A stretch of 8,256 nt of DNA. Source: a virus. Taxonomy: Duplodnaviria > Heunggongvirae > Uroviricota > Caudoviricetes. Shown in pieces: positions 1,739 through 8,256 of this stretch. Every line of letters begins with the position of its first letter. The first letter of the stretch is position 1. A program made the position numbers and the translations under genes. The stretch lies in the IMG/VR virus record IMGVR_UViG_2531839239_000027; one strand, 5' to 3'. The notes below the pieces were generated by a model. That model was not told the origin of the DNA, did no database searches, and saw nothing but the letters and a program-made list of their open reading frames with translations.

Positions 1739-1945
1739 ATGGAAGCAATCAAAAAAGTCATCTTTCGCCAGGAAGTAAAAAAACTTATCCATATTAAGGC
1801 AGACAGCACGCTGCAAAGCATGATCAACGCCGGAGAATTCCCGCAGGGTTTTCGTGTCGGTTTGCGCCGTCGCGGATGGTATGAGGAAGACGTAATCGCA
1901 TGGATGAAAGAACGCGAACAAGAAGCGCGCGGAACGACCGCTTAA
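1739..1945 (+). CDS. alpA: AlpA-family phage regulatory protein (excisionase/activator-like DNA-binding protein)
   Basis: 68-aa ORF; motif ...SMINAGEFPQGFRVGLRRRGWYEEDVIAWMKERE matches the AlpA-family pattern (FP.G.r.G.r..gW.e.dv..W). GAGG 10 nt upstream of the ATG. Position just after int is typical of P4-like and PICI elements. Confidence 0.85.
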   Translation: MEAIKKVIFRQEVKKLIHIKADSTLQSMINAGEFPQGFRVGLRRRGWYEEDVIAWMKEREQEARGTTA

Positions 1946-1970
1946 CATATATAGGGCAAATGATGAACAT

Positions 1971-1998
1971 AAAAAAAGCGGCCCCGAAATGGAGCCAC
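1971..1998 (-). terminator. Rho-independent terminator for minus-strand transcription
   Basis: Read on the minus strand: GUGGCUCC-AUUUC-GGGGCCGC (8-bp stem including two G-U pairs, 5-nt loop) followed by U7 (plus-strand A-run 1971-1977). Would stop transcripts from the RHH gene before they run antisense into alpA. Confidence 0.55.
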
Positions 1999-2066
1999 CT
2001 TTCTGAACAATTAACCCGCTGCGCCGTATGTGTCAACAATCATAAGCCTGGGCATGATAACCGCGA

Positions 2067-2270
2067 TCAGGCTGGTGGGCAATTATCTTGCTTGTTGGGG
2101 CCGTATTGTGCTGCCATTTTCATCCGTTCAGAACGTGAATATTTTTTTAGAAACTCATCAAGGACAAAAGCGCATGGTGCGAATCTTTCTGATTCATGCT
2201 CGAGCGCCATATTTTCGTGCTCTCTGTTCGTTTTTTGCGATGGTGTATTGGTTGATTCTTTATTGGTCAT
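2067..2270 (-). CDS. Hypothetical small protein (67 aa; alternative internal ATG at 2210 gives 47 aa); doubtful
   Basis: Only minus-strand ORF between the RHH gene stop (2328) and the minus-strand terminator (1971-1998), so it lies inside that transcript. Weak Shine-Dalgarno, lower-GC region, no recognisable motifs. Could be non-coding. Confidence 0.25.
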   Translation of the reverse strand: MTNKESTNTPSQKTNREHENMALEHESERFAPCAFVLDEFLKKYSRSERMKMAAQYGPNKQDNCPPA

Positions 2271-2327
2271 TGTGTGTACCTGTAAAGCAATGCGCCGTAG
2301 TACCTCACACCACGGCGCTGATAGTGA

Positions 2328-2633
2328 TTATTCTGATTCTTTGGCCTTGCGGCGCTGGAGTTCTTCACGTGCGACAGTGACGAGCTGCCCGATCTCCTCG
2401 GCGGCTTTGATTCCGAGTTTTTCCACCTGCGCCAGTGCATTGAGCGAAGAAATCAGGAGGTTTTCTCCGCTTCCTTCTGCCTGGCGGCGGGCGATTTCAC
2501 CGCGCATGGCGGTTACTATGAATCCGGCGTTGCTTTCACCGTCCAGTTTTACGGATTCCATGCCTTCAATAACATCATGCGGGATCCGAGCTGTCAGTGA
2601 TTGTGATTTTGCGTTTTTTGAACCTGTAGCCAT
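2328..2633 (-). CDS. Ribbon-helix-helix (Arc/CopG/MetJ-like) DNA-binding protein with C-terminal helical extension; putative repressor
   Basis: ORF-track frame 2328..2648 begins at TTG; the ATG at 2633-2631 with GAGAGG Shine-Dalgarno is the likelier start (101 aa). N-terminus KSQSLTARIPHDVIEGMESVKLDGESNAGFIVTAMRGEIARR has the beta-strand/helix/helix layout of RHH regulators. Divergent from the Icd-like-to-rep operon across an operator-rich region. Confidence 0.6.
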   Translation of the reverse strand: MATGSKNAKSQSLTARIPHDVIEGMESVKLDGESNAGFIVTAMRGEIARRQAEGSGENLLISSLNALAQVEKLGIKAAEEIGQLVTVAREELQRRKAKESE

Positions 2634-2654
2634 CTGTAATCCTCTCAATGAAAG

Positions 2655-2749
2655 TGTAAGACAATATACACATAAAAAGTCTTACATAAAAGCATTGACA
2701 TGTAAGCCACCTATAAATAAAGTTACTTACACCTTGTTAATGCAAGGTG
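2655..2749. promoter_or_regulatory. Divergent promoter/operator region: two TGTAAG...CTTACA palindromes, a sigma70-like promoter and a leader inverted repeat
   Basis: IR1 TGTAAGAC-N16-GTCTTACA (2655-2686). -35 TTGACA (2695-2700), 17-bp spacer, -10 TAAAGT (2718-2723), pointing rightward. IR2 TGTAAG-N19-CTTACA (2701-2731) overlaps the spacer and -10. IR3 CACCTTG-N6-CAAGGTG (2730-2749) sits at the predicted start site. A TATATT hexamer on the minus strand within IR1 could be the -10 for the RHH gene. Confidence 0.55.
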
Positions 2750-2829
2750 CAGAAACGACGAAACCCCGCACTGTAGGAGCAGTAACGGGGCTTCTAACCA
2801 CCAACGATAACGAGAGTATCGAGGTAGCT

Positions 2830-3030
2830 ATGAGAAATCATACCACACACCCGCAAGGGCGGGACTCGCACAACCTGAATAAATACATTTGGCGTTTTAT
2901 CGCCCTGAGCACTGCACAACCGCGCGTGATTACCATTGAGGCCACCAGCGAACAGGAAGCACGCCTGCAATCCCCGGCTGGCTGCGTGATGGTATTCGCT
3001 GCCCGTATTCGTCAGGGGGTAGGCTTATGA
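2830..3030 (+). CDS. Small protein resembling host cell-division inhibitor Icd-like proteins of P1/P4-type prophages
   Basis: 66 codons, the C-terminal part of the spurious long ORF 1900..3030. GAGG at 2821-2824, 5 nt before the ATG. Motif YIWRFIALS...TSEQEARLQ...VMVFAARIRQG matches my recollection of the Icd-like pattern (rF.f.a....A..E.aR...lAR.fvL.FAGR); from memory, not searched. Stop overlaps the next start (ATGA at 3027-3030). Confidence 0.45.
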   Translation: MRNHTTHPQGRDSHNLNKYIWRFIALSTAQPRVITIEATSEQEARLQSPAGCVMVFAARIRQGVGL

Positions 3031-4220: not shown

Positions 4221-5617
4221 AAAGCGCACCGAACTTAAAAAAACAGCCTTACGACAAGATGACCGAAGTCATCATTTTTGCGGGTAGTGATGCGTGGGCA
4301 CATGCGAAACAGTGGCAGGAACAGGACGGGCGACTGGCTGGCGATAATGTGCCTCCCGTTGTGCTGGCTGATGATCAACTGGATGAACTGGCAGACCTGA
4401 GAATCATCGACGAGGGGCGCTATTGTGTCCGGCTGTACAAGGCAGGCCACATCAGGCCATCAAATATTAATGCCATTGCGCACAAGCTGGCGGCGGCGGG
4501 TGTAACTGATGCGAATTATTACCCCGAAGGGATGCACAGCCAGAAGCGGGAGAACTGGCGCGAATATCTGGAACGGGAGCGGGGGAAAAAGCCAGGGGAA
4601 GAAAAACACCACCAGCGAAAAACCACGCTACCAATGAGCGTGGGATCTGCCGGATACGACACACAACTTGATTACGTGGTTAAGGGGATTATTCCGGCGG
4701 TATCGCTGTGCAGCATATACGGGGCGAGCGGTTCATATAAATCGTTCCTTGCGGGTTCGTGGGCGTGTCACGTTTCCACGGGCCGCCAGTGGGGAGGCCG
4801 CAGGGTGGCGCATGGCGCTGTTCTCTATGTGGTTGGTGAAGGCGGTATCGGCGTTCCGCGTCGTGTAAAAGCCTGGGAGGTTGTGCACGGTGAGCAGGTG
4901 AAAAATCTGTATCTGGTAAACCGTCCCATCTTTCCGGCTGCCCCGCTTGATGTTGAGGAAATGGTTATCGCTGCCCGTCAGGTGGAACGGGAAACGGGTA
5001 AACCGGTTCGAATGATTATTCTGGATACGCTGGCGCGCTGCTTTGGCGGCAATGATGAAAATGATTCCCGTGATATGGGGGCGTTTATCCGTGGGTGTGA
5101 CGAACTGAAACGGCGCACAGGGGCAACGGTGCTGGTGGTTCACCATTCCGGCAAGGATGAAACAAAGGGGGCGCGTGGTTCCAGTGCATTTCGTGCATCA
5201 CTGGACGCCGAATACCGGATACGCAGGGAGGACGCAGGCAGCGAAGCGCTGGTTATCTCATGTACCAAAATGAAGGACGCGGAGGAACTCAAAGAAGCAG
5301 CATATGACTTACGCGTGGTGGAGCTTTTTACCGACGCTGACGGGGAGTTAATCACGTCGCTGGTGGTGGTGGATAAGCCGCGCCCTCCCGTTGAACTGGA
5401 GCGCATCGAGGAGGCAGGGAACAAGACGGAGAATCACGCCGCGCTATGGCAGTGCATCAGAACACGAACAGCACACGGGGAGGCGTGCACTATCGCCCTT
5501 CTCCGCGACGATATGAAAAAGCTGGGGTATGAGATGAAGCACTTCCGGCGCTGGCTGTACAAGCTGGAAAATGATGGCGTAATCGTTATTGACGGTGATG
5601 ACGTGCGCCCGCTGTAA
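4217..5617 (+). CDS. rep: Replication protein: RepA/DnaB-like RecA-fold ATPase (AAA_25-type helicase) with an N-terminal domain of unknown function
   Basis: 466 aa. P-loop region YGASGSYKS, Walker B-like MIILDTLARCF, and LVVHHSGKDETKGARGSSAF matching the RepA-family sensor pattern (vhH.gK....RGssa). Followed immediately by an iteron array. AGGGG Shine-Dalgarno at 4204-4209. Confidence 0.8.
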   Translation: MKSAPNLKKQPYDKMTEVIIFAGSDAWAHAKQWQEQDGRLAGDNVPPVVLADDQLDELADLRIIDEGRYCVRLYKAGHIRPSNINAIAHKLAAAGVTDANYYPEGMHSQKRENWREYLERERGKKPGEEKHHQRKTTLPMSVGSAGYDTQLDYVVKGIIPAVSLCSIYGASGSYKSFLAGSWACHVSTGRQWGGRRVAHGAVLYVVGEGGIGVPRRVKAWEVVHGEQVKNLYLVNRPIFPAAPLDVEEMVIAARQVERETGKPVRMIILDTLARCFGGNDENDSRDMGAFIRGCDELKRRTGATVLVVHHSGKDETKGARGSSAFRASLDAEYRIRREDAGSEALVISCTKMKDAEELKEAAYDLRVVELFTDADGELITSLVVVDKPRPPVELERIEEAGNKTENHAALWQCIRTRTAHGEACTIALLRDDMKKLGYEMKHFRRWLYKLENDGVIVIDGDDVRPL

Positions 5618-5819
5618 AAAGTGGGGAGTAAAAGTGGGGGGAGTGGGGAATTTAACAAAATTGAAACATAATTACCCACTTTCCCACCTGTATATACCCA
5701 AAAAAGTGGGGAGTAAAAAACATATTGAAAAACATAACGTTAGAATCACAAAAAAAAGAGGTGGGGAGACGGTGGGTAATTTCAAAAAGTGGGGAGCAAA
5801 AGTGGGGAGTAGTGGGGAA
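5618..5819. repeat. Iteron array flanking an AT-rich core; putative origin of replication
   Basis: At least 9 direct copies of GTGGGGAG/GTGGGGAA/GTGGGTA at approximately 5621, 5634, 5643, 5706, 5761, 5772, 5789, 5802 and 5812. Inverted copies at 5674-5689 (ACCCACTTTCCCACC). A-rich core 5651-5756 with repeated ATTGAAA(AA)CATAA at about 5659 and 5724. Confidence 0.7.
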
Positions 5820-6064
5820 TGAACAGAAAAACCAGAGATAAGACAGCGCCAAAATATAAAGCGTTAGACATGACAGAGCTTTCCTTAAAGGTGGCAATCA
5901 GAACGATAGACCGCCACGCGGGGGAAGGATACGCGAAGGAGCATCCCGAACTGATAAGCGCATTCATGACCACAGCGGCGGCAAACTTTGCCACGCTGAC
6001 AGAACGGGAGATTGCCGAAGCGGAACAGGTAACAACCATCAACGTTAAAAGCGCTGGAGAATAA
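5819..6064 (+). CDS. Hypothetical protein (81 aa; alternative start at ATG 5870 gives 64 aa)
   Basis: ORF begins inside the last iteron and ends 19 nt before a strong terminator. GGGGAG 9 nt upstream of the 5819 ATG. No recognised motif. Confidence 0.4.
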   Translation: MNRKTRDKTAPKYKALDMTELSLKVAIRTIDRHAGEGYAKEHPELISAFMTTAAANFATLTEREIAEAEQVTTINVKSAGE

Positions 6065-6082
6065 CCGAAGAAGTGAGCACAT

Positions 6083-6107
6083 AGCCGGAGCAATCCGGCT
6101 TTTTTTC
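6083..6107 (+). terminator. Rho-independent terminator
   Basis: Stem AGCCGGA (6083-6089), loop GCAA, stem TCCGGCT (6094-6100), then T-run 6100-6106. Confidence 0.7.
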
Positions 6108-6194
6108 GATCTCATATATCTTCAAAGATGGTTAATTAATGATAATCTATCGAAAATACTGGTTATGCAATGATAAGTATCAGGAGAAAACAAA

Positions 6195-6389
6195 GTGGAA
6201 GAGATAAAGCAAAGCGCTACCGTGATGATTGATCATGAAATCCTTAACGAGCTTAAAAAGTTGCAGTTCGATATTGTGCGCCGGATGAATGAATCAGGTA
6301 TCTACGGCAGGGCGGCAACACCAACAATAGGGCATCTTGCGCGCGTACTGTTACGCGAACGCCTGGGCATTGCAACAAGTGAGGCGTAA
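6195..6389 (+). CDS. Hypothetical small protein (64 aa, GTG start), possibly a small DNA-binding protein
   Basis: Strong Shine-Dalgarno AGGAG (6182-6186) 8 nt before the GTG. First gene after the terminator and an AT-rich promoter-like region (6110-6180; GATAAT at 6141-6146). N-terminal beta-strand then helices (ATVMIDHEILNELKKL...) suggests an RHH-like fold; speculative. Confidence 0.45.
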   Translation: MEEIKQSATVMIDHEILNELKKLQFDIVRRMNESGIYGRAATPTIGHLARVLLRERLGIATSEA

Positions 6390-6392
6390 ACA

Positions 6393-6554
6393 ATGGCTAT
6401 CACAGAACGCGAGGCAAGCATCATTAAAGCCATTGGCGAGGAAACAAGAGACACCATAGCGCCATTGATGGAAAAGATCGCAGAGCTTGAGACACGAATA
6501 AACAAGCTGAGTGATGAAGTTGAAGGCCTGATCTCGTTACTCGGTGAGCAATGA
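6393..6554 (+). CDS. Hypothetical small helical protein (53 aa); not in the supplied ORF track
   Basis: Hand translation: MAITEREASIIKAIGEETRDTIAPLMEKIAELETRINKLSDEVEGLISLLGEQ. GAGG at 6381-6384, 8 nt before the ATG, which is 3 nt after the upstream stop. Heptad-like pattern. Confidence 0.4.
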   Translation: MAITEREASIIKAIGEETRDTIAPLMEKIAELETRINKLSDEVEGLISLLGEQ

Positions 6555-6640
6555 CAGGGGGGGAGTGTTCCGGCCGGAAAGTCGATCGCCCTGGACACCG
6601 CCCCCAGTCTCATTCATAGAAAATTTTGCTTTTCAAAAAA

Positions 6641-6660
6641 GTTACACGAAAAGTTACACC
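6641..6660 (+). repeat. Two direct GTTACAC(C) repeats 12 bp apart, immediately upstream of terS
   Basis: GTTACAC at 6641-6647 and GTTACACC at 6653-6660, each preceded by an A-run. Same motif and 12-bp spacing as the array inside terS. Confidence 0.5.
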
Positions 6661-6681
6661 CCCTCAAAACGAGGTTTTTGC

Positions 6682-7170
6682 ATGGCATTAACGACCAAAA
6701 AAAAGCGGTTTGCTGATGCGTTATCAAAGGGCACAAATCCAACGGAAGCCGCGATACATGCGGGATACAGCGAAAAGACTGCAAGGGTTAAAGGCTGGCA
6801 GCTATCCAATGATCCGGAGGTGAAAAAGTATCTTAAGGCTGTAACTTCTGATGTAACTTTTCAGGTTACAAAACCGAAAAAAGTTACAAAGAAAGTTACC
6901 GAAAAAGTTACACCGGAACGGGCATCAATTAACACCATTGAGATGATGGATAACGGCCTACCCGACCCCATCAAAGCAATGGGCAGGATACTGATTGACA
7001 ACATGGACACAGATCCAAAACTGGCTTTAGATGCCGCGTTTAAGCTGGCCCAGTTCACCCACCGCAAGATCGGCAGCATTGGGAAAAAAGAGGTTAAAAA
7101 ACTCAATGCCGCTAATGTCTCCTCAAATCGGTTCCCCATCCCTAAGCCACCAACTGGCTTAAAACACTGA
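6682..7170 (+). CDS. terS: Phage terminase small subunit (Terminase_2/P27-like N-terminal HTH)
   Basis: N-terminus MALTTKKKRFADALSKGTNPTEAAIHAGYSEKTARVKGWQLSNDPEVKKYL matches the TerS pattern (KQ.lF...Y...GNaT.AAi.AGYS.KTA...G..Ll.n..V..yi). ORF-track frame opens at 6544, but the ATG at 6682 with GAGG at 6671-6674 is the likely start. 162 aa from that start. Confidence 0.75.
   Translation: MALTTKKKRFADALSKGTNPTEAAIHAGYSEKTARVKGWQLSNDPEVKKYLKAVTSDVTFQVTKPKKVTKKVTEKVTPERASINTIEMMDNGLPDPIKAMGRILIDNMDTDPKLALDAAFKLAQFTHRKIGSIGKKEVKKLNAANVSSNRFPIPKPPTGLKH
6841..6914 (+). repeat. 12-bp-periodic array of GTTAC/GTAAC pentamers inside terS
   Basis: GTAAC at 6841 and 6853; GTTACA at 6865; GTTACA at 6883; GTTACC at 6895; GTTACACC at 6907. 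Spacings of 12 bp except one 18-bp gap. Encodes the low-complexity stretch VTSDVTFQVTKPKKVTKKVTEKVT. Confidence 0.55.
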
Positions 7171-7181
7171 GGTAGCGAACT

Positions 7182-7343
7182 ATGAGCGAATACATCACAG
7201 ACCCTATTGATGTACTCACGGAAATCATGAACGACAAGCAGCAGCCAACCGAAATACGGTTACAGGCTGCCGCTGTTCTGATGCCATATTTTCACGAAAC
7301 CCTAACCCCATGTTACCAGGAGGAAGAAGATAATGATTTCTAA
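7182..7343 (+). CDS. Hypothetical small protein (53 aa); not in the supplied ORF track
   Basis: Hand translation: MSEYITDPIDVLTEIMNDKQQPTEIRLQAAAVLMPYFHETLTPCYQEEEDNDF. GAGG at 7169-7172; begins 11 nt after the terS stop and overlaps the next start by 11 nt. Confidence 0.4.
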   Translation: MSEYITDPIDVLTEIMNDKQQPTEIRLQAAAVLMPYFHETLTPCYQEEEDNDF

Positions 7344-8256
7344 AAACATGAAAGGCGTGTCGGCAGTTCGCGCCGCCAGCGTGCTTACATCGTGTAAATT
7401 CAGCCATGCAGACGCAATTGAAATGACGAAAAAAAATGATCCGGCAGTATCGAAATTTCTTGAAAAATCCATTGTTGCCGGAATGACTACGGATAATATG
7501 CCGTCGCTGGTGGCAGAGCCGATAGTAAGAGAGCTTGGCGAGTATATTTTTTCGCAGTCTGTACCAGGCAAGCTAATCAGCAGCGCGCTGAATCTTCCGT
7601 TTGGCGCAAAATTGCAGTCAATATCAGGCAAGGGTAGTAAATGGCTTAAAGAAGCCGAAGAAATCCCTGTCAAAGAGGGAGAAGTAAACGAAAGTGCGCT
7701 AAAACTGTGCAAACTTGGCGCTATTGTGATGCTGAATAACGAGCTAATCAAATTTAGCACCCCTGGTACCAATTCAGCGATCAGAGACTTGATCACATCG
7801 GAATCGGTGAAAGAAATAGATAAAAAATTTCTTTCCAGTGACCAGGAGGTGGCGGGCGTATCCCCTGAGGGCGTGCTTAATGGTGCTGATGAGGCCGAAA
7901 ACTTCATAGAGCTTTTCAAAAAGCACATAGCGAACGGTAACACGCTTGCCACGTCGTCGCTAATCTTGCCCGTAGAAAACGCCTTACAGCTTACTGATGC
8001 TGAGTTCTGGCAGATAGAGCTTTTGAGAATACCGGTAATTGTGAGCGAACAGGCGGATCGCATGATGCTGATAGACGCTCAAAAGCTGATTATTAACGTT
8101 GAAGCCACGGTTATAACCCCAACTGATGAGGCGGTAATAAAAACCGAATCAGGGACGGTTAGCCTTTTCCAGAATGACGCTACAGCGTTCAGGGCAATCA
8201 CCTATTGCGGATGGCAAAAACTCGATAAGGCCGTCACCGTTCTGGCGAAAAGCTGA
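7333..8256 (+). CDS. HK97-fold phage major capsid protein-like (no N-terminal scaffold/delta domain)
   Basis: 307 aa, complete (stop at 8254-8256). GGAGG at 7318-7322. Segments SPEGVLNGADEAENF and ATSSLILPVENALQLTDAEF line up by eye with the HK97 gp5 segments EGQLLNGDGTGDNLEGL and ASGIVLNPRDWHNIALLKD. Alignment is from memory and unverified. Confidence 0.6.
   Translation: MISKNMKGVSAVRAASVLTSCKFSHADAIEMTKKNDPAVSKFLEKSIVAGMTTDNMPSLVAEPIVRELGEYIFSQSVPGKLISSALNLPFGAKLQSISGKGSKWLKEAEEIPVKEGEVNESALKLCKLGAIVMLNNELIKFSTPGTNSAIRDLITSESVKEIDKKFLSSDQEVAGVSPEGVLNGADEAENFIELFKKHIANGNTLATSSLILPVENALQLTDAEFWQIELLRIPVIVSEQADRMMLIDAQKLIINVEATVITPTDEAVIKTESGTVSLFQNDATAFRAITYCGWQKLDKAVTVLAKS

Follow-up and report, generated by a model that had tools for sequence, protein, structure and literature searches.

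The 8,256-nucleotide stretch of DNA held as virus record IMGVR_UViG_2531839239_000027 in IMG/VR (the window, that is, the whole stretch that was analysed) harbors two adjacent small open reading frames (ORFs), coding for proteins of 64 and 53 amino acids (ORF64 and ORF53), which open the late block of an AlpA-type phage-inducible chromosomal island (PICI) of Escherichia coli O26:H11. ORF64 looks like a small DNA-binding regulator, while ORF53 has its N-terminus in common with a protein encoded directly behind the portal gene of lambdoid phages, most of them Shiga toxin (Stx)-converting. We tentatively propose, as a possible rather than an established account, that ORF64 gates the late module, that ORF53 acts at the portal of a helper phage, and that the helpers are lambdoid phages of the HNH/cos type. 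All of the evidence is computational and samples approximately seven independent island lineages. The related islands referred to below derive from Serratia (L009 and L013), Hafnia (L015) and unassigned metagenomic or read assemblies (L011 and L012).

Both ORFs are, by their patterns of codon substitution, real genes under protein-level selection. The GTG-initiated 64 amino acid protein with a strong Shine-Dalgarno sequence that was proposed in a preliminary description of this DNA was recovered, with AGGAG at 6182-6186, 8 nt before the start codon, while ORF53 has its own Shine-Dalgarno sequence (GAGG; 6381-6384) within the end of ORF64. The start of ORF53 follows the stop of ORF64 after just 3 nt, and in the relatives the gap is 9-10 nt or the reading frames overlap; judged by this layout, the two form a translationally coupled pair at the opening of the late module. 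As previously described, the pair lies ahead of terS (ATG at 6682) and behind a terminator (6083-6107). The statement that the second protein is absent from the ORF track is, however, untrue of the public annotation, with RefSeq carrying both as hypothetical proteins (WP_000391151.1 and WP_001018604.1, respectively). The two E. coli alleles of ORF64 differ at 25 nucleotides, nineteen of which fall on codon position 3 and none on position 2 (pN/pS: 0.11-0.13). ORF53 shows hardly any variation within E. coli, while homologs sharing 42-57% amino acid identity were found in Serratia, Hafnia and metagenomes by profile search and context look-ups. The ORF53 C-terminus, EVEGLISLLGEQ (EVEGLISLLGE), is invariant in 11 sequences despite many synonymous codon differences beneath it, and as such selection acts on the protein, although a more distant Serratia aquatilis copy ends in DDIEGLLEMTE instead. 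The coordinates of the pair and of the surrounding features are given in Table 1.

Table 1. Features in and around the late module of the island; positions are those of the window.
Feature	Position	Strand	Basis
Iterons (AAAAAGTGGGGAG repeats, families D2 and D3), presumed replication origin	5616..5828	+	After RepA-type helicase gene
81-aa ORF, last gene before the terminator	5819..6064	+	phrog_1231 at 5.8e-48
Intrinsic terminator (AGCCGGAGCAATCCGGCT + T7), described as insulating the late module	6083..6107	+	7-bp stem with 5 G-C pairs, 6083-6100
A+T-rich control region, candidate promoter/operator	6108..6194	+	Composition and conserved repeats
ORF64, 64 aa, GTG start, first gene of the late module	6195..6389	+	ORF list
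ORF53, 53 aa, ATG start	6393..6554	+	ORF list
cos-like core (GGGGGGGAG...CGATCGCCCTGGACACCGCCCCCAGTCTCAT...AGAAAA), ~78 nt	6557..6635	+	Likeness to HNH/terS intergenic DNA
Two AGTTACA repeats, 12 nt apart, candidate island-specific TerS-binding (cosB-like) site	6640..6658	+	Just upstream of terS
Island terS, 162 aa	6682..7170	+	Terminase_2 at 4.8e-11, phrog_641 at 6e-44
'53b', second 53-aa protein	7182..7343	+	phrog_641 (TerS family) profile positions 89-126, 8e-7
Capsid-like protein, 307 aa, HK97 fold family	7333..8256	+	PF05065 at 1.1e-6, phrog_617 at 1.4e-10

Between the E. coli alleles, synonymous divergence (pS) is approximately 0.40 for ORF64 as compared to 0.03-0.08 for ORF53, terS and the capsid gene, which indicates a recombination patch limited to ORF64 and its upstream region. 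The two ORFs are furthermore in frame in the window, divided by TAA ACA only (6387-6395). A read-through fusion was considered and set aside, as the pair is also in frame in L013 and the same-coordinate Serratia loci, but not in L009, L012 and L015. The shared reading frame is probably a coincidence rather than the signature of programmed read-through.

The 53 amino acid protein was described as helical, and the AlphaFold2 (AF2) model agrees, predicting one continuous helix at residues 5-51 (predicted local distance difference test score, pLDDT: 94). The helix is amphipathic, and hydrophobic a/d heptads, as read from the sequence, run from I22 to L50. Pfam, NCBIfam and PADLOC gave nothing usable for ORF53, while a PDB sequence search returned coiled-coil noise only and tblastn against 50,697 phage records only noise with e-values of at least 1. 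Weak PHROG matches were obtained to phrog_1289 and phrog_8767, both aligned from profile position 1, and a local hidden Markov model (HMM) of the ORF53 family matches the 'portal' ORFs of two O157-type prophages (L003 and L004). These matches correspond to a 407 amino acid protein, the gene for which lies immediately behind that for the portal (450 amino acids) and ahead of that for the head-tail adaptor. The phages carrying it are lambdoid, and Stx1a-, Stx2c- or Stx2a-converting phages account for the majority of matching records, among them 1717, YYZ-2008, 2851, BP-4795 and JLK-2012. Comparison of the N-terminus of the 407 amino acid protein (MTERELSIIRALGEEFSTVLADL) with that of ORF53 (ITEREASIIKAIGEETRDTIAPL) by BLASTP gave 13 identical residues out of 23 (L047:7501-8724; e-value: 8e-6), and hhalign of the ORF53 family alignment against the same protein aligned the two N-terminus to N-terminus (probability: 86.6%; e-value: 4.5e-6).

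The family represented by phrog_1289, phrog_8767 and the C-terminal half of phrog_2271 ('portal protein B') belongs to lambdoid, mostly Stx-converting phages. ORF53 resembles it in the first ~23-25 residues (TERExSIIxAxGEE...) and in the coiled-coil character of what follows. In the 407 amino acid protein, however, the N-terminus is followed by four repeats of ~45 residues and a C-terminal domain with a sub-threshold carbohydrate-binding-module match, all of which ORF53 lacks, having an invariant C-terminal motif of its own instead. On these alignments ORF53 is a fragment-sized homolog of the family and not a member of it, the full-length architecture being absent. Some prophages have one G more in the G-run of the junction, which joins the 407 amino acid protein to the portal as an in-frame fusion. 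At this portal/post-portal junction (L047:7480-7510 vs. L046), five G residues give two overlapping genes (ATGA), while six give a single fusion of ~860 amino acids; the difference could be due to frameshifting, phase variation or an assembly error. A portal gene is also found in one of the related islands, L011, where a truncated copy (5881-7146) fills the slot held by ORF53 elsewhere. Its product of 421 amino acids matches the first 417 of the 859 profile positions only.

Several ORF53 homologs (P0004, P0005, P0012, P0014 and P0017) carry the NCBI name 'antitermination protein NusG', for which neither NCBIfam nor Pfam provides support, and the name looks like a propagated misnomer. A further alternative, that the pair represents toxin-antitoxin or abortive-infection cargo in which an antitoxin of the ribbon-helix-helix (RHH) type is followed by a small toxin, is very unlikely. 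PADLOC and NCBIfam gave no match, no recognised toxin fold or family was found for ORF53 in these two resources or through its AF2 model, and a soluble, charged, single 47-residue helix related to a phage structural (head-module) protein is unlike known toxins. The position and partners of the pair are, moreover, conserved like those of core genes, unlike variable cargo.

ORF64 gave no usable match in Pfam, NCBIfam, PADLOC, PHROGs or the PDB sequences, where a single sub-threshold and unrelated chain (IWS1) was returned. No sequence or profile match to an RHH family was obtained in Pfam, NCBIfam or the PDB for any of the six ORF64-family members. No match was found by tblastn among the 50,697 phage records, and a word-indexed protein search recovered near-identical E. 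coli copies only. Searched exhaustively with HMMER, 1.8 billion representative proteins yielded three genuine relatives only (37-45% identity; 70-80 amino acids), all of which are located in AlpA-type islands, each as the first gene after a helicase or primase gene and iterons. In addition, a distant homolog of 68 amino acids, identified with a local HMM (e-value: 2.4e-6), heads the capsid/decoration/Rpp-type module of an O157:H7 lambda-type island, where it overlaps the capsid gene. The preliminary description held that the two proteins have no assignable motifs, which is correct for Pfam, NCBIfam and PADLOC and, for ORF64 only, for PHROGs, but structure and profile comparisons do provide leads.

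The AF2 monomer model of ORF64, built on a small alignment (mean pLDDT: 84), comprises an extended stretch at residues 1-13 and helices at residues 14-33 and 45-57. This is the strand and two helices of an RHH protein, with the strand expected to form only in the dimer. The best solved-structure matches of the model are RHH DNA binders, with weak scores and no accompanying sequence match, while Foldseek searches of the PDB and BFVD were uninformative. An hhalign comparison with an approximate CopG sequence gave an e-value of 0.028 and a probability of 1.8%, while one with a likewise approximate Mnt sequence gave nothing. ORF64 resembles the RHH regulators (CopG, Arc/Mnt, ParD and the TraM N-terminal domain) in size, in the predicted strand and two helices, in its best, though weakly scoring, structural matches and in its first-gene position behind a repeat-containing control region. 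It differs in lacking significant sequence similarity to any such family, and in its longer helix 1 and the 11-residue loop between the helices; DNA binding is predicted only. ORF64 is best read, on this weak RHH call, as a DNA-binding gatekeeper or regulator of PICI late modules.

The control region upstream of ORF64 contains two copies of AATGATAA(N1-2)TATC, at 6138-6151 and 6169-6181, with none elsewhere in the window and 0 expected by chance. Both copies are retained in three other E. coli loci (L006, L007 and L008). Different repeats occupy a similar position in other lineages, such as TGCAAT..GTTGCAT and TTGATCAACA, and lineages with the strand motif S[VI]MLD have TTGATCAACA-type repeats, while the E. 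coli TVMID lineage has AATGATAA..TATC. A comparable hairpin and T-run is found ~90-100 nt before the ORF64 homolog in those lineages for which the upstream DNA was read. The pair comes first after the origin and terminator in E. coli, Serratia, Hafnia and L012, whatever genes come next, and in L011 the ORF64 homolog holds this first position without ORF53. The pair can be confirmed to head the late, helper-exploiting block of the island, behind a terminator and a control region of its own.

The late module holds homologs or fragments of helper virion proteins, which include TerS, a TerS-like mini-protein and a capsid homolog, as well as a tape-measure-like protein or truncated portal in the relatives. 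In the mechanism that we propose, ORF64 would be a dimeric RHH protein which, by binding to the repeats in 6108-6194, would control whether the late module is transcribed, probably through an autorepression that island replication lifts. ORF53 would form a coiled coil and act at the helper portal vertex, either by sitting where the N-terminal anchor of the 407 amino acid portal-associated protein would sit or by forming oligomers together with it. Through its invariant C-terminus, ORF53 would make contact with a partner from the island or the host. It would not act on TerS. ORF53 is probably, by virtue of the shared N-terminal segment, a coiled-coil decoy or adaptor at the place where the portal-associated protein of the helper docks or oligomerises.

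Several observations weigh against this proposal. The alignable part of ORF53 is confined to residues 3-25/27, a similarity of ~23-25 residues, and for the 407 amino acid helper protein neither a qualifying Pfam domain nor a relative of solved structure was found. The C-terminal motif of ORF53 was considered as a second copied segment, but no counterpart was found in the helper protein. ORF53 is furthermore not obligatory, since it is absent from L011. With regard to regulation, the region at 6108-6194 (87 nt) is as AT-rich as the preliminary description of a promoter-like region had it (72% A+T vs. 51% for the whole window), but a scan of 5500-7400 for the sigma-70 consensus gave no match, and the E. 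coli repeats are partly changed in allele L002.

A more specific version of the proposal holds that ORF53 decoys the N-terminal anchor of the portal-attached or portal-fused helper protein, thereby excluding the 407 amino acid protein from capsids, that the tail-less portal of L011 does likewise, that ORF64 is a PICI-wide gate and that the helpers are probably Shiga-toxin phages. We regard this version as somewhat unlikely; if true, it would make the portal vertex a point of satellite interference that has not been described before. Alternatively, both proteins may be purely regulatory, with ORF64 as the repressor, ORF53 as its coiled-coil co-repressor or oligomerisation partner in a split RHH system of the Mnt or TraM type, and the similarity to the helper a functionless relic. 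This appears unlikely, as the part of ORF53 that is most conserved besides the C-terminus is exactly the segment common to the helper protein, and in both L011 and the lambda-type island ORF64 appears to work in the absence of ORF53.

The preliminary description had further compared the pair with small proteins encoded upstream of terS that interfere with or redirect helper packaging. The same pair, however, heads late modules that lack terS. In the Serratia islands it is followed by a gene for a tape-measure-like protein of 798 amino acids (L013:8181-10577 and L009:6407-8803; phrog_2854 at 1e-165) and a capsid-like gene, and in L012 by a capsid-like gene alone. The pair is accordingly without consistent association with terminase genes and, because it also occurs in islands without terS, the TerS-directed idea is not supported; neither protein, moreover, resembles any solved chain by sequence. 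The wider suggestion of a role in manipulating the helper fares better. Such a role of ORF53 in helper assembly is plausible because it is related to a helper-phage head protein, but no specific link to TerS accompanies it. The PDB sequence searches with ORF64 and ORF53 gave no relation to Rpp or Ppi, and a PDB search with the island TerS returned no Rpp-named chain, the presence of an Rpp chain in that library not having been checked. ORF64, with its RHH-like model, looks like a regulator rather than a TerS binder.

A related alternative is that one or both proteins bind terminase or the cos region and redirect packaging to the island as Ppi and Rpp do, for example with ORF64 bound to DNA near cos and ORF53 bridging to TerS or TerL. 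Rpp and Ppi are precedents for packaging-redirecting proteins (PMC6739421). A cos-like core and terS come directly after the pair in the window and the Hafnia island, and the helper phage gene in the corresponding position encodes the HNH endonuclease, a packaging accessory. The pair is nevertheless kept in the terS-less islands, where cos lies kilobases away after the tape-measure-like gene, and besides the lack of similarity to solved chains noted above, the only detectable relative of ORF53 is a portal-associated protein and not a terminase. This alternative is considered quite unlikely.

The gap between ORF53 and terS is 127 nt in length and contains the cos-like element, which was overlooked in the preliminary description. 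Its core shares ~80% identity with DNA that carries no annotation and separates the HNH endonuclease gene from terS in lambdoid prophages of O157:H7 and relatives, and was found in all of the related islands. In HK97/HNH-type phages, cos is placed between the HNH endonuclease and terS genes. Island-bearing genomes among the matches listed often have two to three cos-core matches per record, which suggests a co-resident helper. The AGTTACA motif occurs seven times in the window (0.61 expected), with six of the copies (AGTTACA or TGTAACT), several of them 12 nt apart, clustered at 6640-6912; of these, some lie upstream of terS (6640-6658) and some inside it (6840-6912). Downstream of the cos core, the repeats are of the GTTAACA type in the prophage and in the terS-less islands, and of the AGTTACA type in the window and in L015 of Hafnia, each of which bears terS. 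The recognition repeats thus seem to track which TerS is used. These arrangements are most simply pictured as one cutting site common to island and phage, with the island's own TerS providing recognition that is specific to the island. Once the DNA is packaged in linear form, ORF64 and ORF53 would then come to lie at the far end from terS.

The island TerS shares 47% amino acid identity with the TerS of an HNH-type prophage (e-value: 3e-43), while a genome-contig scan with this protein returned nothing. A 208 amino acid GTG-initiated ORF at 6544 was considered as the true terS, but homologous phage TerS proteins and RefSeq favour the ATG at 6682. The gene for the second 53 amino acid protein, 53b, overlaps the capsid-like gene, and 53b occurs together with terS in every case, with homologs beside terS in L011, L015 and L022. 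Although BLASTP gave no pairwise match of 53b to island or phage TerS proteins, its profile match to the TerS family suggests that it may be a TerS-fragment-like mini-protein.

The capsid homolog shares 22% identity with residues 291-625 of a 645 amino acid prophage protease-capsid fusion (e-value: 3e-20), and lacks the protease and delta/scaffold regions of this helper protein. It is the one late gene found in every related island and, unlike TerS, the constant companion of the pair. A genome-contig scan with the capsid-homolog alignment recovered one locus, and scans of viral and metagenome sequences almost only near-identical E. coli copies. The presence of the capsid homolog throughout the related islands makes it a Ccm-like candidate for capsid remodelling. 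Another alternative is that ORF53 is a CpmB-like internal scaffold or size factor, which together with the delta-less capsid homolog would build small capsids. Every island with ORF53 encodes a capsid homolog of ~310 amino acids without the helper protease and delta region, ORF53 is a short helical coiled coil, as in known scaffolds, and its weak PHROG matches fall into the 'head and packaging' category. However, ORF53 as a copy of the helper delta/scaffold domain found no support (e-value: 12), its significant similarity is to the post-portal protein instead, and L011 has the capsid homolog and no ORF53. A scaffolding role consequently appears improbable. Since the cos core, TerS, the capsid homolog and ORF53 all point to HNH/cos-packaging lambdoid phages, these are the likely helpers, and Stx-converting phages make up most of the matching records.

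An identical copy of the window is found in the E. coli O26:H11 11368 genome (NC_013361.1), beside tRNA-Pro and between yejM and yejO. The gene order of the window comprises an integrase, an AlpA-like regulator, Icd-like and Ash pseudogenes, a DUF4222 gene, a RepA/AAA_25 helicase, the iterons and the 81 amino acid ORF, followed by the terminator, ORF64, ORF53, the TerS gene, 53b and the HK97-family capsid homolog. The integrase gene (1-1242) lies directly after tRNA-Pro in NC_013361.1, as at the att end of a PICI. The AlpA-like helix-turn-helix (HTH) protein matches PF05930 at 0.003, below the gathering score, and is labelled as an HTH regulator in RefSeq, while the helicase matches AAA_25 at 2.6e-43; the combination of an AlpA-type regulator, helicase and iteron origin is that of a PICI. 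So is the small size of the island with its packaging genes (~8.2 kb from int to the capsid-like gene), and terS, the terS mini-paralog-like ORF and the capsid homolog are the only virion-gene homologs in the window. Gram-negative PICIs show this same layout (PMC6092414), and the window is an AlpA-type PICI of E. coli O26:H11. A 376 amino acid ORF at 1900-3030 covers the RefSeq-annotated Icd-like and Ash-family pseudogenes and is probably not a gene. No RNA family was identified in the window with Rfam.

The iterons extend into the start of the 81 amino acid ORF at 5819. A helicase or primase gene followed by iterons can be observed in all of the related islands, with iteron sequences that are lineage-specific and located in the same place; the PICI origin sits 3′ of the rep gene (PMC6092414). 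DNA matches to the 81 amino acid ORF are present in 1536 of 5426 E. coli genomes. This ORF is common to lambda-type PICIs, where the gene for a single-stranded DNA-binding protein (SSB) comes after it and not the ORF64/ORF53 pair, and the lambda-type comparison island was obtained by means of its 81 amino acid ORF. Two alleles of the cassette that runs from ORF64 through the capsid homolog occur among 220 of the 5426 complete E. coli genomes, and the island-carrying genomes sampled belong mainly to O26, O111, O157, O55 and O103. Because it is joined to differing integrases, integration sites and replication genes, the cassette moves as a module.

No sequence relative of the ORF64/ORF53 pair was found outside PICI-type islands, and a literature search returned no mention of either protein. 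Among the known satellites, cos PICIs of the SaPIbov5 type carry the helper cos site and the capsid homolog Ccm and require the HNH endonuclease of the helper (see PMC8569155 and PMC5052747). The present island is similar in its cos-like core, common with helpers of the HNH/TerS/TerL type, and its HK97-type capsid homolog. It differs in being a Gram-negative, AlpA-type island with its own TerS and AGTTACA repeats, a TerS-like mini-protein and the ORF64/ORF53 pair. The lambda-dependent E. coli PICIs of the EcCICFT073 type share the same backbone (int, alpA, DUF4222, rep, iterons and the 81 amino acid ORF), and their late module likewise includes a capsid homolog and is headed by a distant homolog of ORF64. 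In these islands Rpp retargets the helper TerS (PMC6739421). They carry a lambda gpE- and gpD-like pair together with Rpp and no ORF53, in contrast to the island's own TerS and HK97-type capsid homolog here. ORF64 may be the missing regulator of Gram-negative PICI late modules.

A known parallel to ORF53 is CpmB of SaPI1, a small and helical protein of a satellite in which the capsid-binding end of the helper scaffold is reproduced (see PMC5644958). ORF53 is likewise short and helical, and because it has one terminal segment in common with a helper head-assembly protein, as does CpmB, functional mimicry is plausible. It differs in that the copied segment is the N-terminus of the portal-adjacent 407 amino acid protein and not the C-terminus of a scaffold. 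PICIs shape the movement of virulence genes and phages between bacteria, and should the pair direct and carry out part of the hijacking, the yield and spread of Stx phages could be affected. Copying one end of a helper assembly protein has its precedent in CpmB, but the target here would be new, and with ORF53 a portal-associated protein would join the few components of helper assembly that satellites imitate.

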